Shown: positions 15,764 through 64,000, numbered from the stretch's first letter. The stretch is DNA of 64,000 nucleotides from Cyanidioschyzon merolae (GCA_000091205.1 AP006502.2), one strand, 5' to 3'. Program-made: numbers and translations. Notes: generated by a model from the letters alone, not told the origin.

Positions 15764-15942
15764 AAACTGAACCGGAGAGCAAGCTGTCTGTCAAAAATTG
15801 ATGGGAGGCGTGTGTGCTTGGGTAACAAGTTACCCTCTACGGCCGTAGAACATTTCTCGTGTTCCCGATTATAGATACATAACATACTCATGGTCGCTGA
15901 AGTTCGGTTTCTCATTCTATGTCGTCATCATCAGTCTTTGAG

Positions 15943-16300
15943 GACCTTTTACGCGACTGCCTCCTTTTCCTACCTCTGATATCCGGCTTTGAAGACGGCG
16001 ATCGTTGCGCTCACTGCTGCTCTTTTTTCAGCAGTCTGAGGATGCTCATGGATGCGTCCAAGTAAGGAGTTAGCCGCTCCTAGCTTTCTTATAACGCATT
16101 TCAGGCGCAGACCGCAGCTGGGATATTTGCTTCGCATGCTATTTTCACCTTCATCGTAGACAATTTCGGTTCGCCTTTCGCACCGGTGACACTTGGCTGT
16201 GGTCGGGTCTTCTCGTGCGTCCGCTAAACCGCATTCATGCGCTGCTCTGCGGCTTACGAATGCTTGCTTCATCGCTCGTTATATGCCTGTAACAGGTGGA
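15943..16300 (-). mobile_element. repeat family 1, copy E
   Basis: The minus-strand ORF reads TTAKCHRCERRTEIVYDEGENSMRSKYPSCGLRLKC (CxxC-x17-Cx5C zinc finger). About 75% nucleotide homology to copy A, including tcgcaccggtgacacttggctgtggtcgggtc. It shares the same low-coordinate boundary. Confidence 0.45.
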
Positions 16301-18016: not shown

Positions 18017-18317
18017 CCTGAGCGAACAAGCCGTTCCCGCAAACGCACTTTGCAACGATGACGGTGTGGCGCGGCGGGCGCGCCTCCGTAGGGACGGAGG
18101 CCTCGCGTCAAGCGCCGACAACAGCCACCGTTGTATATTGCTTTCCTTCGGCATTGTATCGATACTTCTAACCTGAGAATCGCTGTATGCACAATGGTTA
18201 TAGCAGGCATGTCGGAATGAAATAGAATGGGTCCACTTATTGTTCTCAGGCGTGTACGTGGCAGTTTGCAACCCTGCCACGGTTACCATTGTCATCAATC
18301 CTAGCTTTTGTAGAATG

Positions 18318-18720
18318 TTTCATGGACTGCTTCCACTTCCTTTCTCTTATATCTGGCTTTGAAAATGATTGCTTCTCCTTTCCATCCAGCCCTGTTGTCA
18401 GCAGTCGAAATCTATTGATGTCGGTGTTCAAGTCCCGACTACGCGGCTTTCAGCTGTCGTTCGCACATTTCATGTACAGACGGTTGTTGCGCTCGACGTT
18501 TCGTTCGCCATGTTTACCTTCTTTGGTCGCAGACATGGTGCGCCCTTCGCAGCGGTGACACTTGAATGTGGTCAGGTGTGTTCCCTTATGCCAACCAAAC
18601 CGCCCAGCACCGGAGGCTGCACAGTGGCGCGTGCACGCTTGGCTCACCGTTCAGTAAACGCTCTTGACGTGTACAAAAGAATAAGTTCGAAAGCTCCCTC
18701 CAATTCTAGGTCCGGTTCCG
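18318..18720 (-). mobile_element. repeat family 1, copy A
   Basis: The minus-strand ORF reads HKGTHLTTFKCHRCEGRT...RLYMKC. Conserved blocks are shared with copies B, C, D and E: ccagccctgttgtcagcagtcga and tttcatgtacagacg. Confidence 0.45.
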
Positions 18721-20150
18721 TAGCTTGAGATCACATGCTTCATCTGAGCGATGTCCTCGGCAACTGTTTCGTCCTCTTCACGCGAGAACGTATGCTGTTC
18801 CATTCGATAAAGGATTAGGGGAATAAGATGTTGTTCATGATGAACCGAGCCCCGGACGGCAAATTCGAGCTGGAGAACAAGTCAAGCAATGTCGAGCCTG
18901 CTACGCTCCTTCACTTCAAGGCGATGACGCATGCTCGACCGGATGCGATCGCCTCCATGACTCAATCCGAGTCCAAGAACGTTTTTGCTACGCAGCCATA
19001 CGAGACGGGAGCTCCTCGGTGCATCTCCCGAGAGCGGGGTTTCGTGCAGATCTCGAACGCTGTTATGTCGAGGACTCTACCAACAGCACGCTTTGTCTTC
19101 CGAACGGAGTGAATCGGTTATTGGGCATGACATATTCAGTGAACTCACAGCAGCAACACGTGAACATGTCGGCAGGAGACAACCGTAGGGCCCTAGCCGC
19201 ATCAATCAAGCGGTCCGAATGGCTGCGCCTTCGAGTTGCCGTGAAAAGTAAATGTCGAATGCCAGACCAACGATGATTGAGGCATGCTATGCATAAGAAA
19301 GAAAGAAGCGTAGATCCTTGTAAGCATCAACTGAATAATAATATCGATTATTTTACGAACTCTTGTTCAAGTGCATTGCGAATCAAGTATACTCCGGTGT
19401 CGTAACGAACATCAGCAGCTCAGAGTCGAAAGAGCCACTCCGCAAAAACGACCGAGGGCTCTAGGACCGCATATGAATCCGTAAGCCCTTATGACAACAT
19501 TTCGAATGTCGAGGCTGTATATCGAGAAAAGCTCAGGGACAAACTGGAAAGCAGGAGCATCGCGAGTCGTGCAATGCTCGATTTATAATTGACATGGGTG
19601 CAACATCTGAGGAAGCAACTAATGCTGCTTTTGAAACGCTCAGCGTCTCACACGCTTCACAAGAAACTTCCTCGGAAATCATGATCATTTCGCACGCTCC
19701 ACGGCCTGACTATCCATGCTGCAACGTCGAACGCAGGGCGGCGGGTATCCCGCGGACCCATTGCGCTGACAATACGAAGACCCGCGAACTGCGTCGCAAT
19801 GTCCATTTCGTCGCTTCGGTCCTTAGCAAGTGCTCGAGCACGCAGACAAGCAGTCGCCCGCTCGTTTCCTCTGCACTTGGTTACGGTGGGAGCGATTTAT
19901 TGCGTACAAAAAATTCAGCTTCATTTCTTCGCTGAACGAGGCAGAGAACGTTTGGAAGCACTGAAACGGCTGGAGGAGTGCACATCGCCGTGCTTTTCGC
20001 GGAGTTAGACCACTCGCACGTTGCACGCAATTCGAACTGAAGAAACTCCATGCGCTGCTAACAAGTCTTGCACGCGTCTGATAAATCAGCTAGTCCACCC
20101 TATCTTGCCTAGGTATAGGGATACCGCTCGCATTTCTGGTACATTCGATC

Positions 20151-23442: not shown

Positions 23443-24248
23443 GTTCTCGATTATAGCTTATCGAGGAAGAGACGGAAGCAAGAAGGCACGCCTGTCACGT
23501 TGTGCCGCTGTGGGTGCCTCGCAAAGCACCATTTATTCCTGGACATATTAGGCCAAGACAGTCCGATGCTGTCACCTGGCAAGTGTGCGTTTGGCTTCGC
23601 AGCGCCGGAGGCTCGGCACTGCAATGCAGTGCTTGCCACGGGCACGACAATCCAGAAAATCGTCTGATTCCGGAGCGCATGTGGGTGCATGAAGGAGCAT
23701 AGTTGATGCCCCGGAGGAAGGATGAGGCGTGCCTAGGTAACCGGTTGAATACCTTTCGCATAGGATACGGTGTTGCTGCAGAGTTCGCTCGATCATGTCT
23801 TTAGAACACACTCTAGAGCCCTGATGATGCATGCGGGTTGTATCGCTTTTTTCGTCGGATCCTATCCCGGATGCAGCCTGATGGTACACACGTGACGGGC
23901 TTCGAGCCGCGAGGGTGCATACCTGATGCATCAAGTGTGGGAATTCGCGGCATGAACAAGCATATCCGAAGCTGTTCATCATGCATGTCGCGTCAGCTGG
24001 GAACACGGTATAGATGCCTGCACGAGAAGCGGGCGCGTTTTCGGGCAATATTCGAACGTGTTCTCGGGGCGGAGCCTGCACTTCCATGAGGAATGCTGTG
24101 GCAGCCACGCAGTGAATGATTCACGAAACGATTCGCCGTCATATGCCTAGTCCCCAGCGGGTATACTGCGTTTAATTAACGTGGGGCGCTTGTCGCTTTC
24201 TGTGTCCTAAAAGCACAAAAAGCCTTGCTGATCAGGGTTATACTCGGT

Positions 24249-26829
24249 GCAGAGAATTCTGGAGTGCCTGTATCAGCACGCTGTTTTCGATTTATTTCGG
24301 GTTTCTCGCATACAGTCAACAAAGGAATGCATCCTGTACATTACAGAGAAGACACGGAAAGACTGGTGCTGTCAATGCTAGGATGCGTTCCATGGCCCTA
24401 CGACTACAAGTTCGCCGTTCTGCGCTCAGCGCGTGCATGAACCACACTCGTCGTTGCCCCTGAGCTGAACGTCCTGCACCCAAACCAGATCCCAGAGAAC
24501 GCCCACTAAACGACCGTCTCTCTGTCGATTCACGCCACGACATGCAGTCTCGAACAGGCCGCTATCACAGATGCCAAAGAATGCGACGTTTCCGTTCCGC
24601 AGATGCGAACGGCCACGAACACACGCAGACGGACAACCGAAAACGGCATGCTTATGAGCGGAACTGTCGCACGTCCAGCTGCACACACTTGATTCCGCAC
24701 GGAGACGCGTGTGAGCGCTTCCCATGGGCGACAAGCGCTCATCATCTCGGTCGCAGAGACCTCATTCCCGAGAATACCTGCATCACAATATGGGTACGCC
24801 AAGCAGGGCGTACCGCTGTTCGTAACGAAGGGACGCACGGGAAGACCGGCAGCACCAGCCCGAGTGGCAGTGCGGCCGTGTGGAGGCCTGCACTCGCGAA
24901 ACGCACAGCATCGTGCACTACGTCATCCCGTGTCTGAGCTGTCTCGTCGCGCGTTCATCTCCATACACTGGGTTGTCCTGATCGCGGACGACGCTGCTTT
25001 CCATCACTCAAACCCGGTCAAGGAGCGCGCACCTGAGGCAGGCGTTGAGCGGCTCCCTCCACTGGCTCGTGCTTCTGGGTTCATTCAAGTCGAGGCGTCT
25101 GCGCTGTTGTCAAGTGCCGTTTTCGCAGGCACGCGTCCGTGCACGAGCCGCTCGCAACCGTGAAACGCGTCTTGCACAATTCGTCTCTTGGTCTGTGTCA
25201 GCGATGAACTGGAGTGTTGCCCCTGTGCTCGTGGGCATGCGGCAGCGCGCCGGCGTGCTTCGGTCCTTGAGCGTGCCCGCGACGAACAGGATGACGAAAA
25301 GGTAACTAGATATACATATGTACGTGGGGCAGGGGATGTTTAGTGGCACTGTTTGCACACCGCACCGAGTCCAGGAGAGAAACCGGATGGAAAGCATCGG
25401 AAACACTGTTTGGCACACAGCGACGTGAGGGAGATTCAGAAGGATACCACCAGGCAAAGAAGAGGGAGATTCTCCGGGAAAGAGCGCAACAATGGGCATG
25501 AATGAAAAGCTGTCGGGGCGGAAAGATCAAACGTACGCCGTCCTTGAGGCGTCTCCGCCGAAACACATCAATGGGGAGAATGCTCCAGGACGTGAAATGC
25601 AGGATGCTATTAGGGATCGCACAGCGTCTTACTCGACACGTCGTGTCCAGCACCTCGCGCCTCGGTGCATACCGCCGAAGCATTGTTTTACGAGTTCTGG
25701 AAGAAGGTCTGGCAGCTGTCCACATTCCTCTGGATTATTTCGATCCAACTATCGTGCAGCAAGAGAACGGATGCTCGCGACAGACGATTCTCGATGGCCC
25801 AGTCATATGGTTCGAGATTCGCACAAACGCCTCGAATCGTACCTCGACATGCGCCAGCACAACGTCTTCGCTCGAAAAATGTTCTGCAGTGCATGTGCCA
25901 AATGGTATCAAATGCCTAACTGCAGACCGAAAAGCCTATGTTGGTGAACCTCGAGAGCTTCATGGAGCGCACCGTGTGGGCGTTGTATCCTCATCTTCGT
26001 GGGCCCGCAAAGAAGAGCTGATGGAGGGGATTCTCTGCTCCAGCTTGTACATGAGTGCCACTAGGTGTCACGGGGGCGATCCCTGGCATGGGCACGTGGT
26101 GTCGCGCTGGGGCCGCCACCCGTATCGCAGTGCGGAGGCAAGAGGCGTGTATTCGGGCACACGTTCAATGCGTCAGAAGAAGGAGATGATTGAGAGGTCG
26201 CGTCGCTTGCCCGTAGCCTATGGCGCTGCTCGTTCCGGGCAGCGTAAAACCTGCACTCGTACAGCCTTCGCGCCGAATGTGCAACGACTGCAGGAATCGA
26301 TGCTGCACAACTCCCATAGATGCATCCCCGACGACATACGCGCCTCACGAGCACGAGTGCACCCTGCAACAGGCCCAGAAGCAGTATGTGGAATGGAGTC
26401 GCATGCACGAGATGGCCTACGACCAGCTCAGCAAACATCAGATGCCGAGGCAATCGCCAGTGAGACGCTCGGTATGGTAGGATTCCACAGGCCGCAGTAC
26501 GCCCGAGCGAACAGTATCTGCGCGGAGACTTCAGCCCATCGATGACCTGCAGGTACCGTCTTGCACTTGCAGAGCGTCCGGCTTCCTTGCGTCGAGCGAG
26601 TTCTCGATGTCTACGCTCAGCACGCATCAGTCTGGGCGCTTCGCGAAAACGCTGCAGACCTGCGACGGAAGATAGAAACCCCATTGCCCAGGAGAGCGGG
26701 CATTGGATTCAAGCTTGAAGCGAGCCACAGGTATGGTATGGTACCGCGATCCAGCAAGATTACAGCGCTCAATATCTGCACCGAAAAACCTTTCCCAGGG
26801 CACCTGCTAGACGATATTTGGGTTTTGTT
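24249..26829 (+). repeat. 2581-bp direct repeat, copy 1 (upstream of SERCA)
   Basis: Near-identical (about 99.5%) to 30385-32965 at a constant offset of 6136 bp. Only a handful of single-base differences are visible as amino-acid changes in the duplicated ORFs. Confidence 0.95.
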
Positions 26830-27164: not shown

Positions 27165-27280
27165 CCCCGGTCAACGAAGCGCTTGTCGTGGCCCGCGACG
27201 CATACCGAATCCAGGCGGTGCTCGGTAGCTTGTCGAGACGTTCAGCAACGTCTCTCTGGACCAAAAGTCGTGTGTGTTCC

Positions 27281-30200
27281 ATGGAAGACGCGTTCTGCAG
27301 GACTGCTGAAGAGGTTCTCGAAGCATTTCAAGTACGCAAGGACTATGGCCTCACTGAGGAACAGGTGGCGCTGTACGCCCAGCGGTACGGTAGGAACGTA
27401 ACAGCTCGTGAGGAGAGCGCACCGCTGTGGCAGCTTGTCGTGAAACAGTTTCAGGATCAGTTAGTTTTAATACTTTTGGGTGCTGCTGGAATTTCTTTTA
27501 TTCTAGCTTTATTTGAGGACGATGAGGATCGGGTAACAGCGTTTTTTGAGCCTCTGGTTATCGTCTTGATTCTCGCTGCGAACGCTACTGTCGGTGTGAT
27601 TCAGGAGACCAACGCAGAGAAGGCGATAGAAGCCTTACGGGAGTATGAACCGGACGACGCTACCGTCTTGCGCTGCGGAGAACTTCGGCGGGTGCGGTCA
27701 GAAGAGCTTGTTCCCGGTGATATTATCGAGGTTTCTGTGGGTATGCGCGTTCCAGCGGACTGTCGCATCATCGAACTTGCCTCCACGGTACTCTACGCGG
27801 ACCAATCCGTCCTCACCGGGGAGAGCATCAGCGTGAGCAAGTCTCCAGAGGCTATAACGGACACGCAGTGCATGATTCAGGACAAGACCTGCCTGCTATT
27901 CGCAGGTTGTACGATTGTGCGCGGCAAGGCCCGGTGCGTTGTTACTCAAGTCGGTGAACGAACGGAAATCGGGAAAGTGCGCCGCAATATCGCAGAAACA
28001 AAAGCGGTGATGACGCCTCTCAAGCGCCGCTTGGATGAGTTCGGCTCACTCCTCAGCAAAATCATTCTGTTGATCTGCGTTCTGGTGTGGCTGATCAATA
28101 TTCGAAACTTTTGGAACCCCGAGCACGGGGGGTTCCTTCGAGGTGCAGTCTATTATTTCAAGATAGCTGTTGCTTTGGCTGTAGCAGCGATACCAGAAGG
28201 TCTGCCTGCTGTTGTAACGACATGCTTGGCACTCGGTACAAAACGAATGGCCCGCAAGAATGCGATCGTGCGCTCGCTGCCGAGCGTGGAAACGCTGGGA
28301 TGCACCAGTGTTATCTGCTCGGACAAGACAGGAACCATCACGACGAATCGCATGTGTGTGACGCGTGTCTTGCTGGTGAGCGATGTGCTCCCCGCCGGCG
28401 ATGGAAAGCTTCTGGACCTCGAAGTGACGGGCCACGGAGACTTCTCACCGTTTGGAAATGTTGTCTACAACGGTTCAGTCTTGGAGAGTCCCCTGAAGAG
28501 CCTGCCCCCGTTGGCGGAGCTGAGCATCGCGGCAACCTTCTGTAACGATGCTTCAATCACCTTCAACATGAAAGGAAGACAGTACGACAAAATCGGGGAA
28601 GGGACTGAGGCAGCCCTGATCACGCTGGTGGAGAAGCTTCGCACGCCCGATGAACACTACAATGCGGAAATATCTCACATGCCTCTCGTGCAACGTGCAA
28701 CGGCAACCAGAGCCTACTGGAACCGGCTCTTCGAGCGCGTTGCAACACTAGAATTCACCCGCGATCGCAAATCAATGAGTGTCTTTTGTCGTCGTTTATC
28801 TGACGAGTCGCTCCATATGTTCGTGAAGGGCGCTCCCGAACGCATTCTGGAGAACAGCGATTATGTATGCATTGGCAACGGTATGCGTATTCCGATCACG
28901 CCGGTGCTTCGTCGTCAGCTTCTGGATGCGGTCGCGAGTCTCAGCAGCGGTGTCCATGCGCTGCGAACGCTCGCGATTGCAACTAGAGATCATCCACCAG
29001 CATTGGAAACCGTAGATATGCGCGACACCCAAAGCTTTGCGCGATACGAATCCAACCTGACGTTCATTGGGCTGGTCGGGATGATTGACCCACCGCGGGA
29101 GGAGGTGCGTGCTGCCATCGAGACCTGTGCGCTTGCCGGAATCCGCGTGATTGTTATCACCGGAGACAACAAAGCAACCGCTGAGGCTATCTGTCGACAG
29201 GTGGGTATATTTGATGACTACGAAGATCTCTCAGGGAAAAGTTACACTGGTCGAGAGTTTGAATTGCTTCCCGAGGATGCACGTCGCCAGGTCGTCCGAA
29301 GAGCGCGTCTTTTTGCGCGCGTCGAGCCGCTCTGCAAACAACGCATCGTGACGCTTCTGCAAGAGCGAGGTGAAGTAGTCGCCGTCACCGGCGACGGTGT
29401 GAACGACGCTCCGGCCCTGAAAGCTGCAGATATCGGCATCTCCATGGGTACCGGGACTGCCGTTGCAAAGGGTGCCGCGGACATGGTACTCGGCGATGAT
29501 AACTTCGCCACGATCGTTGCTGCGGTAGAAGAGGGTCGCGCGATCTACGAAAACATGCGACAGTTCATTCGATATCTCATCTCGTCGAACATCGGGGAGG
29601 TTTGGTGCGTTTTCCTTACCGCTGTGCTGCATACACCCGAAGCGCTGGCACCGGTGCAGTTACTCTGGGTCAATCTGGTGACTGACGGTTTACCAGCTAC
29701 CGCGCTTTCCTTTAATCGACCGGCCAAGAACATCATGCAGCAACCACCGCGACCCAGCAATGAGCACATCGTGAATGGGTGGCTTCTCTTCCGCTATCTC
29801 GTCATCGGTACTTACGTAGGTGTTGCGACAATCGCTGGGCTCATCTGGTGGTACATGTTCTATGCAGGCGGACCTCAACTCTCCTGGTCTGAACTGCGCC
29901 TGCATCGACAGTGCCAGTCTGGAAACGACTTGGGTACAGGTCTCGCTATCAGCTGCGACATTTTCCGAAGCAGGCACCCGAGCACTGTCTCCTTATCCAT
30001 ACTCGTGACCATCGAGATGCTGAATGCACTGAATTCTCTCGCTGAAAACGAGAGTATTACCATCGTCGGACCATGGACGAACCCGTTCCTCGTACTCGCG
30101 ATATGCCTGAGTTTGGCGCTTCACGCGATCATTCTTTATGTGCCGTTCTTCAATCGTGTATTTGCAACAGCCCCGCTCGATTTTCAAGAATGGGTAGCAG

Positions 30201-30298
30201 TCCTATGGCTCAGTCTGCCGGTGGTATGGCTCGATGAAGGGCTCAAATATTTCAGTCGACTGCAGAAACGTCGTCAAACAATCAAGAAGATGCGGTAA
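27281..30298 (+). CDS. sarco/endoplasmic reticulum Ca2+-transporting P-type ATPase (SERCA/ECA type)
   Basis: P-type ATPase hallmarks: ICSDKTGTITTNRM, KGAPE, TGDGVNDAPALKAADIGISMG and VAAVEEGRAIYENMRQFIRYLISSNIGEV. The track start at 27188 is a GTG codon. The first ATG at 27281 gives MEDAFCRTAEEVLEAFQV, which matches the canonical SERCA N-terminus. This is a single exon of about 1005 aa. Confidence 0.95.
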   Translation: MEDAFCRTAEEVLEAFQVRKDYGLTEEQVALYAQRYGRNVTAREESAPLWQLVVKQFQDQLVLILLGAAGISFILALFEDDEDRVTAFFEPLVIVLILAANATVGVIQETNAEKAIEALREYEPDDATVLRCGELRRVRSEELVPGDIIEVSVGMRVPADCRIIELASTVLYADQSVLTGESISVSKSPEAITDTQCMIQDKTCLLFAGCTIVRGKARCVVTQVGERTEIGKVRRNIAETKAVMTPLKRRLDEFGSLLSKIILLICVLVWLINIRNFWNPEHGGFLRGAVYYFKIAVALAVAAIPEGLPAVVTTCLALGTKRMARKNAIVRSLPSVETLGCTSVICSDKTGTITTNRMCVTRVLLVSDVLPAGDGKLLDLEVTGHGDFSPFGNVVYNGSVLESPLKSLPPLAELSIAATFCNDASITFNMKGRQYDKIGEGTEAALITLVEKLRTPDEHYNAEISHMPLVQRATATRAYWNRLFERVATLEFTRDRKSMSVFCRRLSDESLHMFVKGAPERILENSDYVCIGNGMRIPITPVLRRQLLDAVASLSSGVHALRTLAIATRDHPPALETVDMRDTQSFARYESNLTFIGLVGMIDPPREEVRAAIETCALAGIRVIVITGDNKATAEAICRQVGIFDDYEDLSGKSYTGREFELLPEDARRQVVRRARLFARVEPLCKQRIVTLLQERGEVVAVTGDGVNDAPALKAADIGISMGTGTAVAKGAADMVLGDDNFATIVAAVEEGRAIYENMRQFIRYLISSNIGEVWCVFLTAVLHTPEALAPVQLLWVNLVTDGLPATALSFNRPAKNIMQQPPRPSNEHIVNGWLLFRYLVIGTYVGVATIAGLIWWYMFYAGGPQLSWSELRLHRQCQSGNDLGTGLAISCDIFRSRHPSTVSLSILVTIEMLNALNSLAENESITIVGPWTNPFLVLAICLSLALHAIILYVPFFNRVFATAPLDFQEWVAVLWLSLPVVWLDEGLKYFSRLQKRRQTIKKMR

Positions 30299-30384
30299 AA
30301 GGCTCTGGAAGAGAATGCAATCCGGGAACACCAGCCGCTACAGCAGCGACAACACTCTGCCTCGGAACCTAGACAAGCCCTGGA

Positions 30385-32965
30385 GCAGAGAATTCTTGAG
30401 TACCTGTATCAGCACGCTGTTTTCGATTTATTTCGGGTTTCTCGCATACAGTCAACAAAGGAATGCATCCTGTACATTACAGAGAAGACACGGAAAGACT
30501 GGTGCTGTCAATGCTAGGATGCGTTCCATGGCCCTACGACTACAAGTTCGCCGTTCTGCGCTCAGCGCGTGCATGAACCACACTCGTCGTTGCCCCTGAG
30601 CTGAACGTCCTGCACCCAAACCAGATCCCAGAGAACGCCCACTAAACGACCGTCTCTCTGTCGATTCACGCCACGACATGCAGTCTCGAACAGGCCGCTA
30701 TCACAGATGCCAAAGAATGCGACGTTTCCGTTCCGCAGATGCGAACGGCCACGAACACACGCAGACGGACAACCGAAAACGGCATGCTTATGAGCGGAAC
30801 TGTCGCACGTCCAGCTGCACACACTTGATTCCGCACGGAGACGCGTGTGAGCGCTTCCCATGGGCGACAAGCGCTCATCATCTCGGTCGCAGAGACCTCA
30901 TTCCCGAGAATACCTGCATCACAATATGGGTACGCCAAGCAGGGCGTACCGCTGTTCGTAACGAAGGGACGCACGGGAAGACCGGCAGCACCAGCCCGAG
31001 TGGCAGTGCGGCCGTGTGGAGGCCTGCACTCGCGAAACGCACAGCATCGTGCACTACGTCATCCCGTGTCTGAGCTGTCTCGTCGCGCGTTCATCTCCAT
31101 ACACTGGGTTGTCCTGATCGCGGACGACGCTGCTTTCCATCACTCAAACCCGGTCAAGGAGCGCGCACCTGAGGCAGGCGTTGAGCGGCTCCCTCCACTG
31201 GCTCGTGCTTCTGGGTTCATTCAAGTCGAGGCGTCTGCGCTGTTGTCAAGTGCCGTTTTCGCAGGCACGCGTCCGTGCACGAGCCGCTCGCAACCGTGAA
31301 ACGCGTCTTGCACAATTCGTCTCTTGGTCTGTGTCAGCGATGAACTGGAGTGTTGCCCCTGTGCTCGTGGGCATGCGGCAGCGCGCCGGCGTGCTTCGGT
31401 CCTTGAGCGTGCCCGCGACGAACAGGATGACGAAAAGGTAACTAGATATACATATGTACGTGGGGCAGGGGATGTTTAGTGGCACTGTTTGCACACCGCA
31501 CCGAGTCCAGGAGAGAAACCGGATGGAAAGCATCGGAAACACTGTTTGGCACACAGCGACGTGAGGGAGATTCAGAAGGATACCACCAGGCAAAGAAGAG
31601 GGAGATTCTCCGGGAAAGAGCGCAACAATGGGCATGAATGAAAAGCTGTCGGGGCGGAAAGATCAAACGTACGCCGTCCTTGAGGCGTCTCCGCCGAAAC
31701 ACATCAATGGGGAGAATGCTCCAGGACGTGAAATGCAGGATGCTATTAGGGATCGCACAGCGTCTTACTCGACACGTCGTGTCCAGCACCTCGCGCCTCG
31801 GTGCATACCGCCGAAGCATTGTTTTACGAGTTCTGGAAGAAGGTCTGGCAGCTGTCCACATTCCTCTGGATTATTTCGATCCAACTATCGTGCAGCAAGA
31901 GAACGGATGCTCGCGACAGACGATTCTCGATGGCCCAGTCATATGGTTCGAGATTCGCACAAACGCCTCGAATCGTACCTCGACATGCGCCAGCACAACG
32001 TCTTCGCTCGAAAAATGTTCTGCAGTGCATGTGCCAAATGGTATCAAATGCCTAACTGCAGACCGAAAAGCCTATGTTGGTGAACCTCGAGAGCTTCATG
32101 GAGCGCACCGTGTGGGCGTTGTATCCTCATCTTCGTGGGCCCGCAAAGAAGAGCTGATGGAGGGGATTCTCTGCTCCAGCTTGTACATGAGTGCCACTAA
32201 GTGTCACGGGGGCGATCCCTGGCATGGGCACGTGATGTCGCGCTGGGGCCGCCACCCGTATCGCAGTGCGGAGGCAAGAGGCGTGTATTCGGGCACACGT
32301 TCAATGCGTCGGAAGAAGGAGATGATTGAGAGGTCGCGTCGCTTGCCCGTAGCCTATGGCGCTGCTCGTTCCGGGCAGCGTAAAACCTGCACTCGTACAG
32401 CCTTCGCGCCGAATGTGCAACGACTGCAGGAATCGATGCTGCACAACTCCCATAGATGCATCCCCGACGACATACGCGCCTCACGAGCACGAGTGCACCC
32501 TGCAACAGGCCCAGAAGCAGTATGTGGAATGGAGTCGCATGCACGAGATGGCCTACGACCAGCTCAGCAAACATCAGATGCCGAGGCAATCGCCAGTGAG
32601 ACGCTCGGTATGGTAGGATTCCACAGGCCGCAGTACGCCCGAGCGAACAGGATCTGCGCGGAGACCTCAGCCCATCGATGACCTGCGGGTACCGTCTTGC
32701 ACTTGCAGAGCGTCCGGCTTCCTTGCGACGAGCGAGTTCTCGATGTCTACGCTCAGCACGCATCAGTCTGGGCGCTTCGCGAAAACGCTGCAGACCTGCG
32801 ACGGAAGATAGAAACCCCATTGCCCAGGAGAGCGGGCATTGGATTCAAGCTTGAAGCGAGCCACAGGTATGGTATGGTACCGCGATCCAGCAAGACTACA
32901 GCGCTCAATATCTGCACCGAAAAACCTTTCCCGGGGCACCTGCTAGACGATATTTGGGTTTTGTT
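30385..32965 (+). repeat. 2581-bp direct repeat, copy 2 (starts 87 bp after the SERCA stop)
   Basis: See copy 1. Homology stops abruptly at ...gatatttgggttttgtt in both copies. Confidence 0.95.
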
Positions 32966-36449: not shown

Positions 36450-39310
36450 AGGGCGTTAGCGATCAGAAATCGTCTCCAGTTTCCCCGACGCAATATGATC
36501 TTGGCGTACCAGTCATTTATCTATGATCAACGAAGATGAGACATGGCGCTCCATTCGATCGAGACTGGACCCACCAAGAAAGTGCTTGGGGCTCACACCA
36601 ATCGTTTATAAGGAAGAGCTGAGGACGGAGAGTGCCTCAGTGAATGAGGCCTGCACAGACCACGGGACAGAGCTGCATGAAGACGCAACTGGGCACTGCC
36701 AAGACCCAATCTATTGGCACCAATATGCTGCAGAACTACCGCGCCTCGACCCGGTACCGGTATGGAACGACCCAATCTTCTGGCCTGAATCTGTCCGGAC
36801 CCTCTTAAGGTCATGCAACCGCAAAACACCTGGCTTTGACGGTATCCCTGCGGAGTGGATGCAACTGGCGACCCCAGAAGACGAGACAACAGGGACACCA
36901 TCGATACCAAATGAATCTGACAGAATCCTGGGCAAACGCCTTCTGGAGCTCATCCAACGCATGTTTGAAGAAGCGTACATCCCGGATGTACCGAGGACTG
37001 TCGAGGTCGTACTGATCCTCAGAAAGGACTCTTACACACAAAGACATGAACATCTACCGGACTATTCGCCTCATCCCGTCTATCATGAAGCTACTTTTGC
37101 GCCATCCTCACGAACCGGATCCAGAGGCGCCTCGAGGAACGCAAGTTCTTCGCCCCAGGGAGGGCTGGATTCCGGAGCCGCGAGGAGTGCATGAGCCATG
37201 TCCTGACCCTCACTGAAGTGGCGCAACGTCGCTTCATTAGCGACCAACAACCAACTTACGTATGCTTCATCGACTTTCAAAAGGCCTTTGACACGGTCCC
37301 GCACGAGGCTCTATTTTAGAAGATGGAACGAGCCCAAGTCTCCGGAAAGTGCTTGGCGTTCTTCCGTGCGCTCTATGCAGACTCGTGGATGCGCATCCGA
37401 CTGGGCGATGGCTCAAGAACCCCTTGTATAAGAATCCGCCGTGGACTGCGACAGAGCGACCCCACATCCCCGCTCCTTTTCAACATCTTCATCAACGATC
37501 TGCTGAACAATTGCAGACAATACGGGCTTGAGGTGCCGTGGATAGACTGTGGAGATGCTCGGTGAGGAGCGCCCACATGGGAACCGCCTCGCAGGCCTTC
37601 TATTTGCGGACGATGTCGTGCTGTTGGCACCCGCCCCGGGAACGCTTGCGGGTAGCATGGAACAAGTCAGCGCCTGGACCGATCGCTGGGTTATGAGCAT
37701 AGGAGCATCGAAGTGCGGCGTCATGCTCATCCATGGAGACTCGCAGTGCATTCGCAATCGCTCGTGGCGGTTGCAGAGTCAGGAAATTCCAATCGTGGAA
37801 AAATATCGCTACCTGGGGGTCTGTCTCACGCCGACGCTCGACGAAAAGGCACACATCGACGAGATGATCGCCAAGATGCATAGACGTACAGCGATCGCAC
37901 GCCCATTCCCATCCGACCCCTCTATCCCCTTAGCAATCCGTACCAGGGCACGAAGGATGTGTATCATCCAGCCTGCGACCTGGGGTGCTGAATGGTGCGG
38001 CATGAAGCACCCAAATGCCTCGCGTCTGCAGACAGCCGCCAACATGGCAATGCGACCCGTTGTTGTCGTTGGATGCTCAATGCAGAGCAGAGCGACCAAC
38101 CCGCCTGGCACTCGGACTTGAACTCCAAATACCCTCGACAGAGGCGATAGCAGCAGGCTGCCGGGCATGTATACGGGCCAAAGGGCCCAGCATGTGCACC
38201 TGGTTCAGTCGGATTCTCATGCAGACCCCAACGCACCGCGAGAAAACTTGGATGAAATCGACGCAGATTTAGCTGAGGCGCCTCTTAGGCGAAAATACGC
38301 TCCACTCGTTCCCCAGAAATATAGAATTCTCCCGTCGCCTCAAGCGAACGGTCCAAACACCAATATGGGAAAGTAGACACGGTACCAGTCGCGCCAGTAA
38401 CGCCGGCTTGACTCTATACCGGAACTACAACCTAGCATACACATGCAAGTACTGGTAGGAGGCGCTGGAATTCCCGGGACTTGCTCGAGGTACCCAGTTG
38501 CTCGCCAAAATCCGCGTTGGTGGCTTCCGGCTGGCAGCACCGTCTCTAAGCCGGATAGGAGCACTGGAATCGCACTGGGAGTTACACTGACCCTGCTGAG
38601 GAAACGAGACCCCCGAAACGCTGACATATTTGGGCATACAGTGCCCGCGCTGGAAACAGGAGCGCAGCGAGCTCCTTGAAGGACAGCAGCAGCTGGGCAT
38701 CACCTTGATAGCCAAACGCCGGACACTCACTTTGAGTGTAGCACTGGCAACTGATGGTCCGCTAACCGAGCCTCAGCGCTCATTAGTGACGAACAAACTC
38801 ACACTTTACCTTCTAGGCAGCAGTTCCAGCGAATCGGATACGCACACGGGGCCAGTGCGCTTTCTGCGCCTACCCACTGTGGTGGGTGTCAAGCACAAAC
38901 CCGCATTGCCAACCGACAACAAAGCACTCCATGCATGATCACGAAGGAGAGAGGCGGCTCCCAGGATATATCCTAACAGCCAAGTTTCTCCAGCGTGTCG
39001 TGCAGCGAAGGAAAGCCTGCATCCGCAGACTGTCCAAGCACAAACTGACGACGAGACCCGATTCTACGTCGGGTGAAGCACGCCTCGAGCCGACGCCCTC
39101 TGTGGTATAGAAAAGCTGTTCCAGCTCGGTGAACTATCTGCTCTAGCATTTAAGGTGCAAAGGCGAATACGGAACGGCAGGTACGAAGCACACACAATAG
39201 GACGTATGAAACCACCAGAATATCCGAGAAAAAGTCTGGGTAATGTAACTTGGAGATAGAGGGTTTGATGGATACTTTACAGTGCACTGAAAAACACAAA
39301 AAAAAGTAGG
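36450..39310 (+). mobile_element. degenerate, 5'-truncated non-LTR retrotransposon (LINE) relic
   Basis: RT motifs lie in order across at least 3 frames with stops. These include KTPGFDGIPAEW (domain 0), IRLIPSIMKLL, FFAPGRAGFRSREEC, YVCFIDFQKAFDTVPHEAL, RGLRQSDPTSPLLFNIFINDL, LLFADDVVLLA (FADD box), SKCGVML and KYRYLGVCL. A C-terminal zinc knuckle (ET..YLGIQCPRWKQERSELL) follows, then an A-rich tract near 39290-39308. Confidence 0.7.
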
Positions 39311-39418
39311 AAACAAATACACATAATTGGAAAACGCTCGCCTAAGTAAACGTTTTGTCGATGAAAAAAATGCATTCAGGGCACCGTCCGACAGGGGCGC
39401 GCACGCCGCTGCCTGCCT

Positions 39419-43093: not shown

Positions 43094-43180
43094 GCAGCAG
43101 CAGCAGCAGCAGCAGCTTATGATGATGGTGATGCACCTGATCATGATGCTGCTGCTATATATGCCCCCACAGATGAGACT

Positions 43181-43212
<32 letters not shown>

Positions 43213-43400
43213 TTATGACGATGGTGATGCACCTGATCATGATGCTGCTGCTATATATGCCCCCACAGATGAGACTACAGCAGCAGCAGCAGCTTACGAT
43301 GATGGTGATGCACCTGATCATGATGCTGCTGCTATATATGCCCCCACAGATGAGGCAGCAGCAGCAGCAGCAGCAGCGGCAGCTTGTGATGATGGCGATG
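43094..43400. repeat. minisatellite (81-93-bp unit x about 3.5) with embedded (CAG)n microsatellites
   Basis: The unit (gca)n ttatgatgatggtgatgcacctgatcatgatgctgctgctatatatgcccccacagatgagactaca is repeated. It translates to polyQ, polyA or polyC depending on strand and frame. Confidence 0.85.
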
Positions 43401-48781: not shown

Positions 48782-49040
48782 GCAGTCGTATCAGGGCCAG
48801 TGTGATAAACAACGACCTGAGAAACGCCAGAAAGCGCTTGATAATCGTCATCGTCACTGGAGTCAGTATCACAGGAACGGCGCATGCTCTTTTGAAGATG
48901 ATTCCGACCACTACGCAGTCATATCAGGGCCACTGTGATAAACAACGACCTGAGAAACGCCAGGAAGCGCTTGATAATCGTCATCGTCACTGGAGTCAGT
49001 ATCACAGGAACGGCGCATGCTCTTTTGAAGATGATTCCGA
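48782..49040. repeat. tandem duplication of a ~126-bp unit spanning the 3' coding end and 3' flank of the BRCT gene
   Basis: 48782-48907 and 48915-49040 differ by about 3 substitutions and are separated by a 7-bp junction. The BRCT CDS uses copy 2 and ends in the junction. Confidence 0.9.
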
Positions 49041-54080: not shown

Positions 54081-54488
54081 CAACACTGGCCTTCAACGCC
54101 CGGCGTGAAAGTGCTCTATACACAAAGCAACCCCGTTGCCGCTTGCGATCCGGCTAAGAGCTCGTCAAAGTCTTCCTCGGGCACTAAAGTCGGTATCCTG
54201 CGTGCAGATCGCCCAGTTGCACTCACTCCAAAAGTTTTCACGCAATCGTACGGAGCTCGAGTCCTTCCAGTAAAGATACCAAGCAAGCAACCGTCTAGAA
54301 GACTAGGGCGCAATCCGTTTGTGTAAGCGCGGCGGCTGCGGCGACGACGATTGCAGCAACTGCAGCGCTTGCAAAGCCGCCGCAGCGGTACACCCATGTC
54401 AGAATGAAATGGAAGGGGCCGACTGGCTCAAGCAAACAAATTCGAGTTATGGTCTCTTCCCGATGTTATGAACATCAGCCTTCGCGGG

Positions 54489-54780
54489 CTTTTTCTGTGA
54501 CTGCTTCATATTCCTCTCCCTTATCCGTGGCTTTACATACACTGCTCTCGTCCTTCCTTCCCGCTCCGTTGTCAGCTGGAGAAGGATGTTGATGGCAGCG
54601 ATCAAGTCGCGATTTTGCTGGTTCAAGCTGATGTCAACGCATTTCATGCAAATCCGAAAGTCGCAATCAAACCTTCCTTTGCCATTTCTAGCTTCCTTGA
54701 TCGGAGCCTCTTTGCGCCATGAGCAGCAAGGACGCTTCATCGTGGTCGCGTGTTCCAACGAATCCACCACTTCGCCTCCC
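54489..54780 (-). mobile_element. repeat family 1, copy D
   Basis: The minus-strand ORF reads ...RPCCSWRKEAPIKEARNGKGRFDCDFRICMKCVDISLNQQNRDLIAAINILLQL, the clearest zinc-finger plus NRD-x-IAAINIL motif. The 5' boundary (gggctttttctgtgactgcttc) matches copy B. Confidence 0.5.
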
Positions 54781-55921
54781 CATTGCCGGCCCCGCCACGC
54801 ATGAACGCTTGCCCCTTCGCTCGATGCAGGCCCTTGACAGGCACAGAGGGCTCCTCACAATGCCCACCTCCGGTTTGGCGACCGCTGCAGCACTCGACGA
54901 TCACGGGCGTTTCCTGCATAATCAGCCCGGCAAGTGCTGTGTCCACTGCACGCACACGTGCGAGCTCTTCCATACCATACAGGGTTTATGGAATGAGATG
55001 CGGCCCTAGATGAAACGAGCTCCGGAGGGAAGGCTCAGGGCTGAAGAACACGTCGAGAAATTTCAATCTTTGTACGCCCCTTTCGTGCGAAACGGCAACG
55101 CATACTCTGACCAACGCAATCACTGTGATGACTAAAGTGAGCGTCCAAGACCCTTTTCCATGCGAACGGAATAGAAAGGGACCTGCGGGGGTATGGTACC
55201 TTTCGTGAGTTGCACTGTGCTTGCGTCGAATGCCGATTCGCGAAGAGCCTCAGAGAGCAGGGAATTTGTCTTCCATACAGAATCGATTAGTTGGCACGAC
55301 AATTTCAGGGAACGTTTGGCATGAGCAGTTGAAGAAGCCGTCCAGAGACGACGTCGAGTATTTTCACTCGTCAATCCAGCGGCGCGAATTGCTGCGCCTA
55401 AGACTTGTCCTGCAACGGATAAGATCGACAACTTGAAATATGCGTGATTCTAGCACGCTACACGAACGTAGGGAGGAAGCGCAGAGGTCGTCATTTATGA
55501 ATCGAACAACGATATCGCTTAGTTTACGAGCTATTCATTGGGACGTCGCGAATCATCTTCGAGTCGGCGACTGCGCGACTGACAGCGGCATAACGTTGAA
55601 GGCACCGCTCCGAAAAGACGACTAGGAGTCCTGAACGTATGCATGAATTCGTAAACCCTCATTGCTGTGCTTCGAATATCGAGGTTGTACATGTAAAAAC
55701 AGTTCGGGAAAATTCGCTAGGCAGCAACGGAGCAAGCTGCTCAGTGCTTCATTTTAGTTTGTACGGGTGCGGCCAAGTCCTTCCCAGTAGCTCCTTCCGC
55801 AAAAGGCCGCACTGTTGCGTTCAAGTGAGAATCTCTGTCATATTGCGACATCTAATGAAACAGTATGCGCTTTTCCTGTCATGCTTAGTATCTCCATTCG
55901 AAAGCAGTCGCACTGCAGCCA

Positions 55922-56452: not shown

Positions 56453-57467
56453 AGCCTTGGCAACACAAGTTCCTCACGCTTCAAGCAGCACGTAATGTAT
56501 GCTTGCTCCTTGAGGCTCGCTACGTACATAGTCTCAAAGCTACGCGTCCACACCCGCAGGAAGAGGCATGAAACTTGTAATAGCTTGGTTTAATCAGAAC
56601 AATGGCGAGCACGCCGAAAATACCTGAAGTGGGCGCTCCCAAAAAATGTCTCGCGATAGTGGAGCTTAAATATATATCTACCCACGCTCTGTCGCCTACC
56701 GGCCATTTTTGACCTGCCGCCTGCTATCGGTTTCAGTTTATCCAGGCACACCTCGAGCCTGAGAGGCTGCCTCACAAAGGTGGATCGTCTCAGCTCCTCG
56801 GGCCTCATCTTCAGGATCAAACATCGTCTAATATTGCTAGCAACTTCTGAGTCTCGGTTCACGAACTCCTTGCGTGCAGTGCCCTCTGGTTGGCCTCATC
56901 AATGCAAGGATTCCCCGAAAACATGCCATCTGTGGAATGAAGGTATCTTCATCGCCCTGCGGGCGAACAGCTTTTCTCGCCTACCTCACCTCTTGCTTTT
57001 CATTATCTTCTTCATTGCTTGCTCTTGTTTTCTTGATGATCGCCGAGAAGAGATTTTTTCGTTTTTTTTCACAGCAGCCAGCGAGGACTGTCCTCTAGGA
57101 TCCCCGACTTCCATGTGCGCACCTTTCCATTGGGGTTTTACTCTTGAAAATGAATGCCCTTCAAGAGAATCTGCTTTAAACCGCAAAAAAGCAGTTGATG
57201 ACACCCACCAGGTGGCGGAACGCAATTCAGGTTAAAGATCATAGTCTGCATCGCGTCGAGCGCGCGGATCTCGCAGGACTGACCGCTGCTGCTCGAAAAC
57301 TGCATTGATTTAGTTGCAATCCTCTTACGTGGTGTTCTACGTGGAATATTACTGCGCCTCTAAAGAGTCTGTGCGGGGTACTTTACTCGAAAAAGAGTTC
57401 AAGTTGGGTAGGAAATATCGGATACGTTATCCTAGGCGCCTGAAACGTCCGTGCCGTAGGGCGCAAT

Positions 57468-61222: not shown

Positions 61223-61632
61223 CAAGCTGAGCGAGTTGTAGGCGCTGACCTCTACGCTCCTCCGTAAACAAGATCTTCGCGTTAAAAAACGTTCTGATCA
61301 GGGTGCGGGCGAGCATCTCTGTTGGCCAGACACATTTACAGATCCCACCGGAAGGAAAGCTTATCGACGTATGGAATTGGTCCCTATATTACATCCATGA
61401 GGTTTTTATGAGGATTGGGGCATTTAGGGCACGCAAGACGCTGTTCTTGTGCGGTGGGGAACCACTGGAGTACCCTCCATAGAAATCATCACTCGTGGAG
61501 CGTGTCCAGACGTCGCCTAGTGTCTGCATGTTCTGAGCAATTTCAGAATAAAGTGGAATTAGTCCGCTTCTAAAAACGTTCCCGCGAATGTTTCTACCTC
61601 TTCACATTGTGATCGACGCCAGCCAGCGCGGG

Positions 61633-62275
61633 ATTTTTCTGTGACTGGTTCTTCTCCCCGCTCTTATCTCCAGCCTTCAATACGTCGTGCTCTCCTATCC
61701 GTCCAGCTCTGTTGCCAGCAGTCGAGGGATGTTGATGGCAACGTTACAGCCACGATTTCGCCGCTTCCTCTTGTTTTCTACGTATTTCATGTACAGACGA
61801 AGGTTGCAATCAAGCCTTTGCTTCGCATTTTCACCCTTTTTCTGTTCAACTTTAATGCGCCCACATAGCGGTGGTAGGTGACTGCGCTCAGGTCCTCACG
61901 AATGTCCACAACGCCTAATCCGCCAAGCGCCGCCCCGTGGTACATGCGCGCTTGCTTTGTCGCCCGGTGAATGCGCTTGACGAGCGCCGGCGGCTCCCGT
62001 AGATGCCCTCCGGTCCTGCGCCCTGTGCCGTGCGCTACGCTCACGCGCTTTCCCTGAGTAGTCCCGCACGCGAGCACTCTGGCAGCTGCACGCGCAAGCG
62101 CTCGCTGTTCCATTTCAGTCGAGGATTGGTGGTGCGCGATGCTTTCCATGTTGAAATAAGTACCTGAAAAAAGCCCAAGATTGGGAACACATCCAGATAT
62201 TTCGATCAGTCTGTTCCGTCCTCGTGCACAACTGAGACGCACTGTCCACTGGAGGCGATCGCTGCGATGATTCAA
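61633..62275 (-). mobile_element. repeat family 1, copy B (longest; frameshifted)
   Basis: Minus-strand frames give ...REPPALVKRIHRATKQARMYHGAALGGLGVVD..., then (frameshifted) RLDCNLRLYMKYVENKRKRRNRGCNVAINI. Nucleotide homology to copies C and D runs throughout, including gttgatggcaacgttacagccacgatttcgccgcttc. Confidence 0.45.
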
Positions 62276-63713
62276 GTCTTAGAACAAGATTCTTTTCCAC
62301 GCAGACAGAAGATTCGGGGCCCCCCCGGAGAACACTCGAGAGGTGTCATGCTGCCGTTGGGTGCCATTTCATCCATTGCCACAAAGAGAGGAGTTTTCAT
62401 CCTTCGGGCAGAGTCGATTATTTGGGATGACAAGTCCAGTGAACTCGCGGCCTGGGCTTGTGAACAAGCCGTCGAGGAACGACGTCGAGTTGTTTTCATC
62501 GTCACTGGAACGGCGCTCAGTGCTGAACCCACGAGTTGCCTTGCAACAGAGAGATCGAAATTCGGAGAGTGCGTGATTTGAGCATGTTACATGTAATTAG
62601 AGAATAAGATCGGAGGCTTGTACGTATAAAATGGATACTGACAGCGTTTTTTTCTATCCCCTGCTCGAGTACGTCGAGAATCGTCTCAGTATCGGTGACG
62701 TAAAGTATTCCACTGGAAAGGCCTCGTAGATGTCGCGCCCAAACAGATTACAGAGACTCCTAATGCTACGTACGAATTCGTAAGCCTCTAGAGCAGCATT
62801 TTGAATCTGGAGGCTCTGGATCAAAAATGACATTCCTAAAATATATTGAAAAATAGGAAGAAAGCAAGCTTTTCGGGGCTGCATCTCAATTTGTCAAGGC
62901 TTTAGCGAGCCGGCCAATCGTCAAAACACTACAAAGAGCATCACTCAAATCTTTAGTTAGTGGAGAAAATCGTATGAACAGCAATTTGTAATATTTCCTA
63001 TATTCCGGAAAGTCCCTTTCATTCAATACAAACTCATTTCCAGTTAATTCCATCGAGCAGAATCGAAGAGAGGGCTATATGGGTATTCCCCGCGGAAATT
63101 ATGTGCATAAGAGCCGCTGTTACTGATGTACGACAGAAAATGTGGTCATTGACGTGTGATATATGCACCAGTGAATTCTGAAACACCTGTACCAATACAT
63201 CTATTTTGTTTGCATTTTTTCTATTATTCTAAGCAAAAGCTTCCATCTTTTGGATTGGGCAGAGGCAGCAAAAACCTCTATGCTGTGAATGGTGGCATGG
63301 GAAGAAGAGCTCTAAAAGTGCAAGTCATTCATTCCGCCGTCAACAGCTGGATAAGGCACAGTTCTGATGGACCTAATCGTACACGTCGTGCATCAAAAGA
63401 AACAGTACTTACAAATTCCATAGAGGCGACTCTCTTTTCTTCCTTCAAATCCAGTTCATAATTTCCCAAAAAACACCACCAAAGAAGCCGCAGGATGAAA
63501 AGTTCTTCTACCGCGGATGCAAACGGCGATGAAGAGGCACAGATGTGCAAAGAAGAAAGCACGATCCTGTGATACTCGCGCAACCTATAGCAAATTGTCG
63601 AATTTGAACTAATACGTGAACTCTTATAATTATAATCCTTGACCTGATTTGTGTTCCGCGCATAGGTGAGCGTAATGGAGTGTTTTCTCGTGGTCTATAG
63701 GAGATACATTTGA

Positions 63714-64000
63714 AGTACGTTCATTTTCAAAAATAGAAAGTCCAAGTGAAAGCTGCTTATGTGGAAATATTGGGTCCTGGAGAGCCGTCATCGCCGATTA
63801 AGTGAGAAAAGAAGTTCTCGCCGACTATAGAGCGAAAAAGAGCAAGTGACGAAGATGAAGGCGAATAGATGGAAAGAGAGCCAAAAAAAGATATTTGCCC
63901 GACGGAACGACGACGAGAGTTTCGTGGCACAGAAGGTACCCATTCGAGGAATTTTCGGATGGGTGCGCTCAACCCACGTAAATGCATGCATGGATTTGTT
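63714..64000 (+). repeat. repeat family 2, copy 3 (ORF MKANRWKESQKKIFARRNDDESFVAQKVPIRGIFGW...), truncated by the window end
   Basis: Homologous leader (gtacgttcattttcaaaaatagaaagtccaag ... ttctcgccgactatagagcgaaaaagagcaagtga) and N-terminal ORF. Confidence 0.4.

Follow-up and report, generated by a model that had tools for sequence, protein, structure and literature searches.

A family of dispersed, decayed repeats lies in a 64,000-nt stretch of chromosome 20 of the red alga Cyanidioschyzon merolae 10D (the window, by which we mean the whole stretch of DNA analysed), extending from gene CMT233C to gene CMT247C. Each complete repeat combines sequence related to a Tc1-like transposase with sequence related to the C-terminal part of a Fanzor1 protein. 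The copy of main concern here, copy D, is a complete, non-autonomous element of 1379 bp at 54391–55769 on the minus strand, delimited by BLASTN, by its aligned ends and by an nhmmer family model; the interval 54489–54780 falls inside its Fanzor1 remnant. The surrounding region has a high gene density, with introns mostly absent, and its housekeeping genes include those for UbiA, a NifS-type aminotransferase, a P-type ATPase, CDC50, a BRCT protein and PDH E1.

Six related copies are detected by a sensitive self-BLASTN of the window, in alignments of ~1.3 kb with pairwise E from 1e-18 to 1e-129. Besides copy D these are copies A (8428–9809), C (18203–19600) and E (61536–62902), all complete and on the minus strand; copy F, complete and inverted, with an element extent of 1519–2896 on the plus strand (self-BLASTN match ~1535–2828) and a 3′ end tandemly triplicated out to 3033; and copy B (~15890–16304, minus strand), which is truncated at the 5′ end, has no recognisable 3′ terminal repeat and lies ~75 bp away from a derivative of CMe-1A, the Fanzor1 family already published for this genome. 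The five full copies are each ~1.38 kb long from terminal repeat to terminal repeat. An earlier account of this DNA, made without knowledge of its origin and here called the sequence-only reading, had placed repeats at five positions, all of which do hold a copy, but it counted five copies where there are six and gave them lengths that are far too short. Its figure of 70–80% identity is also too high: full-length pairwise identity is only 55–61% (mean 58%, mean Kimura two-parameter (K2P) distance ~0.65), and standard BLASTN, which returns only the best segments of 100–360 bp, gives 73–76%.

The pairwise distances are star-like, every pair of copies being about equally far apart. Sliding-window identity among the copies is flat, at 0.55–0.68 from end to end, and is no higher in the tail, which had been described as the most conserved part. 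Private stops and frameshifts are abundant in the minus-strand translations of every copy, in agreement with the earlier description of them as frameshifted relics, and no open reading frame (ORF) within them matches an annotated gene in an exact look-up against the annotated C. merolae proteome.

Transposase and Fanzor1 remnants

When single copies were translated in three frames and compared directly with Pfam, no match was significant, so a consensus was needed. The six-copy majority consensus reads ..QRALARAAD..VIVEYGTGRGTGGGHRGEPSVPVK..VVDIREHLTTVKCHRCEG..DRNFRLC..RNRDFNAAINIL..RPAY.., with KCHRC as its first zinc-finger pair. Its Fanzor part matches a single Pfam family, PF07282, with E=3e-5 and 24.5 bits, slightly under the cut-off of 26.3. 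Searched against 5.8 billion proteins, the same part matches metagenomic proteins only, with E down to 2e-37, and each of these aligns back to the window copies by tblastn. Invariant between the consensus and the metagenomic proteins are QRALARAAD, YG.GR..GGGH.GE..VPVK, E..TT.K, C, DR.FR.C and R. Against a hidden Markov model (HMM) of the Fanzor proteins of the intact relatives, the window consensus matches positions 539–753 of 764 (E=1e-45).

Several comparisons place these proteins in Fanzor1. One relative, P0043, aligns with the published protein CMe-1, a Fanzor1, over a 321-aa stretch that begins at the DPG RuvC-I motif and ends at NRDFNAAINI (E=3e-11). Single-sequence searches of the PDB with the consensus and with P0043 found no match, but a profile of 19 relatives did reach Fanzor1 entries, namely those of Parasitella (9cf0, E=5.3e-15) and SpuFz1 (8gkh, E=7.3e-7). 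Fold comparison, made on the 704-aa relative P0054 and not on the window remnants, gives the same assignment. The AlphaFold2 model of this protein (predicted local distance difference test score (pLDDT) 82, predicted template modelling score (pTM) 0.74) has SpuFz, PpFz and GtFz as its top seven Foldseek matches in the PDB (E=2e-17 to 2e-10), with far weaker matches to Cas12f and TnpB structures (E=4e-6 to 2e-3). The C-terminal half of the Fanzor1 motif, [TS][TS]-x-x-C4 zinc finger-x(5,50)-RD (Bao and Jurka 2013, PMC3627910), is present as HLTTVKSHRCEG...DRNFRLCMKCVDNSWKRRNRDLNAAINIL in a consensus built from seven full copies, which are ~58% identical. We conclude that, as judged from its sequence, the 3′ third of each copy is a Fanzor1 (TnpB-superfamily) remnant, and the sequence-only reading was right to see TnpB/Fanzor-like C-terminal remnants here.

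A complete nuclease is not present in the window copies. Fanzor homology begins at HMM position ~539 of 764, the half that carries RuvC-I and the WED/REC region has been replaced, and the window peptides hold the RuvC-II region, the zinc finger and RuvC-III. The intact relatives do carry an N-terminal RuvC-I, GLDPGRVNLYTTA; in the longest window copies, where a search for RuvC-I upstream had been advised, transposase sequence stands in place of the DPGR motif region. The Fanzor1 remnant of copy D occupies 54441–54981 on the minus strand and HMM positions ~539–753, as seen by hmmsearch (D_f0, E=9e-12; D_f2, E=1.5e-7) and by tblastn of P0041–P0046. Its motifs are QRALARAAD, GYGTGRG..GGH.GE..VPVK, the zinc finger E..TT.KCHRC and the RuvC-III motif RNRD..AAINIL. 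The remnant of copy B spans HMM positions ~583–758.

The Asn of the RNRD motif had been taken to mark the loss of the catalytic RuvC-III Asp. The intact relatives, however, read RNRDFNAAINIL at this point, so this Asn is an ancestral feature and the RuvC-III residue is instead the following Asp. This Asp is kept in the copy at 8.4–9.8 kb (RNRDPNAAINL) and in that at 54.4–55.8 kb (QNRDLIAAINIL), and is replaced in the copy at 61.5–62.9 kb (RNRG). The peptides listed in the sequence-only reading can all be found on the minus strand, but their copy labels were scrambled: CVNLSF... belongs to the copy at 8.4–9.8 kb, CNLRLY... to that at 61.5–62.9 kb, KCHRCEGRT to that at 18.2–19.6 kb and KCHRCERRT to that at 15.9–16.3 kb.

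The nature of the sequence upstream of the Fanzor1 remnant emerges from the relatives. A metagenome scan yielded 31 loci, several with intact Fanzor1 ORFs of 700–790 aa, and at L008/L009, L012/L013 and L020 an ORF of 317–326 aa lies directly upstream of a Fanzor1 ORF of 763–786 aa. This upstream ORF matches PF13358 (DDE_3) above the Pfam cut-off, with E=1.6e-25 and 4.1e-28, and in one relative also PF13592 (HTH_33), again above cut-off; its catalytic motifs have the Tc1-like spacing D-76-D-34-E. Segments of the same protein are recognised in the window as APSTLCRW, VSRQLVGAAIRAAGLTRK, FVAIDESAF, GSWTRT.VIAVIAS and FIMDNISFHKS. The window consensus matches the relatives' transposase HMM at positions 2–230 of 318 (E=2e-29 and 3e-19), keeping VAIDE(S/T) and MDNI(S/A)FHK, with the third catalytic residue deleted. 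Transposase-derived sequence, corresponding to the N-terminal 230 aa, makes up ~790 bp of each copy, its upstream two-thirds. Both HMMs are matched by every full copy (the transposase of copy A weakly, with E=2e-4), and copy B matches the Fanzor HMM only.

In copy D the transposase remnant lies at 54982–55692 on the minus strand (HMM 2–230 of 318; hmmsearch D_f1, E=1e-12), and residues 1–36 of L009up, the upstream ORF product of locus L009, match 55692–55585 by tblastn (E=5e-6). It holds the helix-turn-helix region and the first two catalytic Asp motifs and lacks the third catalytic residue. The segments VIAVIASVG and KGLGLGL in this upstream region were considered as a degenerate RuvC-I, a candidate that was ruled out since the relatives' upstream ORF shows the region to be transposase. 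Among annotated C. merolae proteins, a search with the consensus transposase gave no homologue. The N-terminal truncation claimed for the Fanzor genes is therefore real in that the N-terminal part is gone, but a Tc1-like transposase remnant stands in its place and the unit is not simply a truncated Fanzor gene. With a Tc1-like transposase upstream of Fanzor position ~539, the unit is identified as a deletion derivative of a Tc1/mariner-Fanzor1 transposon.

The two parts meet at a common junction. The transposase and Fanzor HMM matches abut at consensus residues 296/297, and at the DNA level the intact relatives resemble the family model from model position 889–897 onwards, the place of the junction. 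Three more chimeric copies with the same junction are found on C. merolae-like metagenome contigs (L029, L030/L031 and L035/L036). In the seven-copy consensus a single frame, with one stop, covers the transposase part between about HMM position 27 and the junction; GYG stands at the RuvC-II position, as it does in the relatives, and the zinc finger regains its second CxxC. The Fanzor part and the transposase part are in different frames there, so the deletion probably placed the Fanzor remnant out of frame from the start.

Some of the metagenomic loci have further features. At L014 (2264–5320) one 991-aa ORF joins the N-terminal portion of the transposase to a full Fanzor1. The family copy of L035/L036 is interrupted (L035 3579–3811, L036 818–1050) by a sequence 82% identical to the TE-N2_CMe-like sequence at 39191–39368 of the window, and represents a nested transposon insertion. 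On L005 (1–6995), a contig from the European Nucleotide Archive (ENA) with a GC content of 44.5%, the truncated Fanzor1 relative P0045 adjoins genes for a PIF1 helicase and a Prim-Pol, a context that looks viral or mobile-element-like rather than algal.

Element ends and the 3′ block

The ends of the element were obtained by comparing the flanks of two metagenome contigs from the Joint Genome Institute (JGI), L012 (1–3757) and L013 (1–4043), an ungapped inverted-repeat search on L009 having detected no terminal repeats. One and the same intact element, coding for a Tc1-like transposase of 326 aa and a Fanzor1 of 780–786 aa, is found on both contigs, in flanks that differ beyond TA on both sides, which indicates recent transposition. 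Homology begins at TA/CAACCGTGAAAATTAAAATGGAACAC and ends at GTGTTCCATTTCTACTTTCTCTGGTG/TA (a slash marking the element edge); the ends themselves read TA/CAACCGTG...GGAACAC and GTGTTCC...CTGGTG/TA, and in L012 they match at 20 of 26 positions.

In the window the same kind of end is seen. The sequence-only reading had noted a sharp common boundary, tttttctgtgactgc, at 54489. Homology between the copies continues ~100 bp past it, to ...CCATTTCATTCTGACATGGGTG/TA, and the true end of copy D is at 54391; the reverse complement of tttttctgtgactgc gives codons for KQSQKK, part of the basic C-terminal tail that the protein once had. When the 5′ ends are aligned with the reverse-complemented 3′ ends, a common terminus, CACCCATGTCAGAATGAAATGGA, appears. 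Of the first 23 positions, 19 are the same at the two ends of the window consensus. These terminal inverted repeats, ~23 bp long, coincide both with the end of inter-copy homology and with the points where L012 and L013 diverge. Copy D has its 3′ terminal inverted repeat at 54391–54416 on the minus strand (plus strand, CACCCATGTCAGAATGAAATGGAAGG) and its 5′ terminal inverted repeat, CACCCGTACAAACTAAAATGAAGCAC, at 55744–55769, also on the minus strand.

The shared boundary at which an insertion-site context had been sought is thus internal, and it is the true ends that carry one: TA is present at six of the ten window flanks and at every determinable end of the metagenomic relatives. Copy A has TA on both sides (8426–8427 and 9810–9811), and copy D has it in its 3′ flank (54389–54390), assigned from the sequence and the aligned ends. 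We read these TA flanks as a putative target-site duplication. L008/L009, L012/L013 and L020 also share a conserved motif, CACCCCCCGTC(A/T)ACC, in the sub-terminal sequence immediately inside their 5′ terminal repeat; its orientation is that of the motif GACCCC(C)C(G)C of the 3′ block described below.

The sequence-only reading placed an omega-RNA in the tail of the repeats. That tail consists of coding sequence, a 3′ sub-terminal block and the terminal repeat, and in the window consensus the stop codon lies ~57 nt before the terminus. Since the dead copies have decayed without selection, covariation among the six is uninformative and live relatives were used instead, with conservation measured as mean pairwise identity per region across eight diverged sequences. 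The zinc-finger/RuvC-III coding region gives 0.68, and the C-terminal tail coding region that comes next falls to 0.26, being effectively unalignable, whereas the block GA(A/T)(G/C)ACCCC..stop..TACGCC gives 0.63 and the terminal repeat 0.61. This conserved block is limited to the 3′ end, as the 5′ end departs from the reverse-complemented 3′ end after 26 nt. Its counterpart in copy D, lying across the old stop codon at 54417–54460 on the minus strand and corresponding to the live relatives' GAAGACCCC..TAG..TACGCC, is a decayed candidate omega-RNA scaffold region with TTTGCT in place of TACGCC. The window consensus keeps TACGCCC...GGGTG/TA, but individual copies have lost the TACGCC motif.

In the RNA, UACGCC can pair with the terminal GGUG and the flanking UA. 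RNAalifold, applied to the 3′ blocks of the live relatives, finds only six pairs, all invariant and none covarying. In an alignment of the arms only, a seventh pair does covary (UA 4, AU 3, CG 2, GU 1, unpaired 1), with a covariation score unmatched by any of 500 shuffles; it is the sole informative pair, and as a sign of a stem it is suggestive rather than conclusive. Rfam has no family match in the window or in three intact loci. From its conservation and pairing the 3′ block of the live relatives could be an omega-RNA scaffold, and a cis element of another kind, for instance one that binds the transposase, would account for this conservation too. The omega-RNA proposal is therefore plausible for the live ancestors, but what it pointed to in the window is accounted for by coding sequence and a terminal repeat.

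The 3′ end of copy F has a history of its own. At 2851–3033 of the window a 62-bp unit is repeated three times in tandem at ~90% identity; it comprises the last ~46 bp of the copy (from the GCCC of TACGCC to the terminal repeat), the TA and ~14 bp of flank, which is also the extent that the candidate omega-RNA hairpin and a guide-length flank would span. With ~90% identity between units against ~58% in the family, the array is far younger than the family.

Origin of the copies

We consider, with a probability of about 0.9, that all six repeats descend from one non-autonomous deletion derivative of a Tc1/mariner-Fanzor1 transposon and have been decaying neutrally. This reading draws on the homologies, the common junction, the terminal repeats with their TA flanks, the intact relatives and the Fanzor1 fold of one of them. 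The ancestor would have been an element of ~3.5 kb of the Tc1/mariner superfamily, with terminal inverted repeats of ~23–26 bp and insertion at TA, that coded for a Tc1-like DD34E transposase of ~320 aa followed by a Fanzor1 RNA-guided nuclease of ~700–790 aa. A single internal deletion of ~2 kb would have joined transposase codon ~230 to Fanzor1 codon ~539, probably out of frame, giving a product of ~1.38 kb that retained both terminal repeats and the entire 3′ end. This derivative may then have spread in C. merolae in one old burst, mobilised by transposase acting in trans. All copies have since decayed, to ~0.65 substitutions per site between any two, and none has an intact reading frame. 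Presumably the copies have no present function.

Several observations weigh against this account. Four of the ten window flanks are not TA but TG, TG, CA and CG, and the terminal repeats are weak within single copies. No full-length copy is found in the window or among annotated C. merolae proteins, so that we only infer an autonomous partner in the C. merolae genome, and the intact relatives come from metagenomes only. With seven copies at ~58% identity the exact junction nucleotide and the reading frame are uncertain, and the single burst would follow from roughly equal pairwise distances in a small sample.

The sequence-only reading held that the copies are N-terminally truncated relics of a stand-alone Fanzor or TnpB (OMEGA) gene of the IS200/605 type, with a non-coding omega-RNA tail as their most conserved part. 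The Fanzor C-terminal motifs are real, the live relatives' block across the stop codon stands out from the adjacent coding tail (0.63 against 0.26), the UACGCC/GGUGUA pairing has its covarying seventh pair, and the omega-RNA scaffold of SpuFz1 likewise spans the stop codon through the 3′ inverted repeat (PMC10432273). The ~790 bp of Tc1-like transposase upstream of the Fanzor remnant nevertheless refute a stand-alone Fanzor as a complete description. The transposase is of the DDE_3 type and the ends are terminal inverted repeats with TA flanks, neither of which belongs to an IS200/605-type element; the tail is mostly coding sequence and terminal repeat, no more conserved than the rest of the copy; and the six RNAalifold pairs do not covary, Rfam is silent and the motif has decayed in the window copies. 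We judge this explanation unlikely. Exaptation, in which the copies would serve the host as intergenic regulatory modules or as a gene family of transposon origin, appears less probable still. The copies are, it is true, all situated among housekeeping genes where gene density is high, and five of the six share an orientation, but that split is not significant (two-sided p ~0.2), and in so compact a genome almost all non-genic DNA is intergenic regardless; uniformly low identity, stops and frameshifts private to each copy, and the lack of any ORF from the copies in the annotated proteome also speak against it.

Least credible is that the copies belong to CMe-1A (Bao and Jurka 2013). This family shares the genome and the protein superfamily, has fragments in the window, and is of similar age, being described as a 3169-bp element with ~150 copies, each ~80% identical to the consensus (PMC3627910). 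Comparison with the published consensus DNA (Additional file 2 of PMC3627910) and with the CMe-1 protein, also from the supplements, leads us to reject it: in a sensitive BLASTN the 3169-bp consensus has eight matches in the window, all of them outside the six copies, and the CMe-1 protein is ~25% identical to the intact relatives and gives just a 77-aa match to the window consensus (E=5e-4). CMe-1A thus resembles the present family in its host, its Fanzor1-type protein, its age, its many decayed copies and its deletion derivatives in the window, but has no DNA similarity to it; it is reported without terminal repeats, transposase or a determined target-site duplication (PMC3627910), whereas the present family has all three, the duplication being putative. 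The earlier claim of an uncharacterised family falls short in that Fanzor1 in C. merolae was already published, although as a different family.

Beyond the deletion-derivative origin, we put forward tentatively, and as rather less probable than its negation, a more specific proposal for the 3′ block. The block GAAGACCCC..stop..TACGCC, closing on GGUG and TA, might be a compact omega-RNA scaffold of ~55–90 nt belonging to a previously uncharacterised, Tc1-borne Fanzor1 clade that occurs in metagenomes only, with some members seemingly recently mobile (L012/L013). In that case the C. merolae derivatives would be 'ghost' elements: having retained the omega-RNA module, they could once have been serviced in trans by both transposase and Fanzor1, and the triplication in copy F might be a trace of such activity.

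Related elements and significance

The architecture of the intact relatives is already known, since Mariner-type elements with a transposase and a Fanzor1, flanked by TA, have been described (PMC3627910). PUl-1 and PGv-1 (Bao and Jurka 2013, PMC3627910) carry, like the present family, a Tc1/mariner-type transposase and a Fanzor1 in one transposon with terminal inverted repeats and TA flanks, and the intact metagenomic relatives share exactly this layout. The present family is nevertheless a separate one, its intact members coming from metagenomes and none from named genomes, and its C. merolae copies, unlike PUl-1 and PGv-1, are all one deletion derivative in which transposase codon ~230 is fused to Fanzor1 codon ~539.

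Among characterised Fanzors, SpuFz1 of Spizellomyces punctatus (PDB 8gkh) is the best fold match of an intact relative (E=2e-17, TM score 0.52–0.62) and is also matched by the family profile; the aligned structures share ~16% sequence identity, and the likeness is drawn from sequence and predicted fold. The SpuFz1 element has inverted repeats of ~30 nt, and its shortened 'ghost' copies still have both the repeats and the 3′ region (Saito et al. 2023, PMC10432273). Unlike the present family, the Spu-1 locus has a single ORF and no transposase (PMC10432273). TnpB of IS200/IS605 elements such as ISDra2 has in common with the present family a RuvC nuclease, a zinc finger followed by RD-x-NAA-x-NI, and PF07282. 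The present family, however, has neither a Y1 (TnpA) transposase nor sub-terminal hairpin ends of the IS200/605 type, and its relatives are about twice the size of IS200/IS605 TnpB, with a Fanzor1-type N-terminal half.

A literature search for Fanzor in red algae turned up no paper other than Bao and Jurka (2013). The present family is absent from that paper and from those texts and supplements of the 2023 Fanzor surveys that were consulted, Repbase lying outside the comparison, and the portions consulted of the Saito 2023 and Yoon 2023 supplements make no mention of Cyanidioschyzon.

Other repeats are interspersed with the family. Pieces of CMe-1A lie on the plus strand at 11921–12469, 15254–15814 and 63617–63855 and on the minus strand at 56684–57249 and 38805–39278. 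Three of these five are internal-deletion derivatives of ~550 bp, with consensus positions ~775–1070 joined to ~2840–3092; the others are one partial copy and one TE-N2_CMe-like 5′ part, TE-N2_CMe being a described relative of CMe-1A (PMC3627910). A direct repeat of 2584 bp, 99.5% identical between 24246–26829 and 30382–32965, flanks the P-type ATPase ORF (27188–30298). Each of its two units holds an ORF (25502–26545), annotated as CYME_CMT641C, that looks like a degenerate CMe-1-like Fanzor1 remnant (tblastn with CMe-1 residues 512–696, E=7e-8). Tandem arrays at 5924–6132, 43094–43374 and 48782–49040, with periods of 80 bp, 81/96 bp and 133 bp, are unrelated to the family.

The six copies amount to ~7.3 kb of the 64-kb window and account for a large share of the local intergenic DNA of a very compact genome. 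They add a second Fanzor1-bearing transposon family, of Tc1/mariner type, to the single one described for C. merolae in 2013, and they show that this alga has hosted DNA transposons with terminal repeats. The window relics themselves are presumably inert and open no new question; the interest lies in the metagenomic relatives and the candidate omega-RNA block. As a by-product for the Fanzor field, the analysis supplies intact metagenomic relatives with defined ends, a transposase partner and a concrete candidate block for an omega-RNA.

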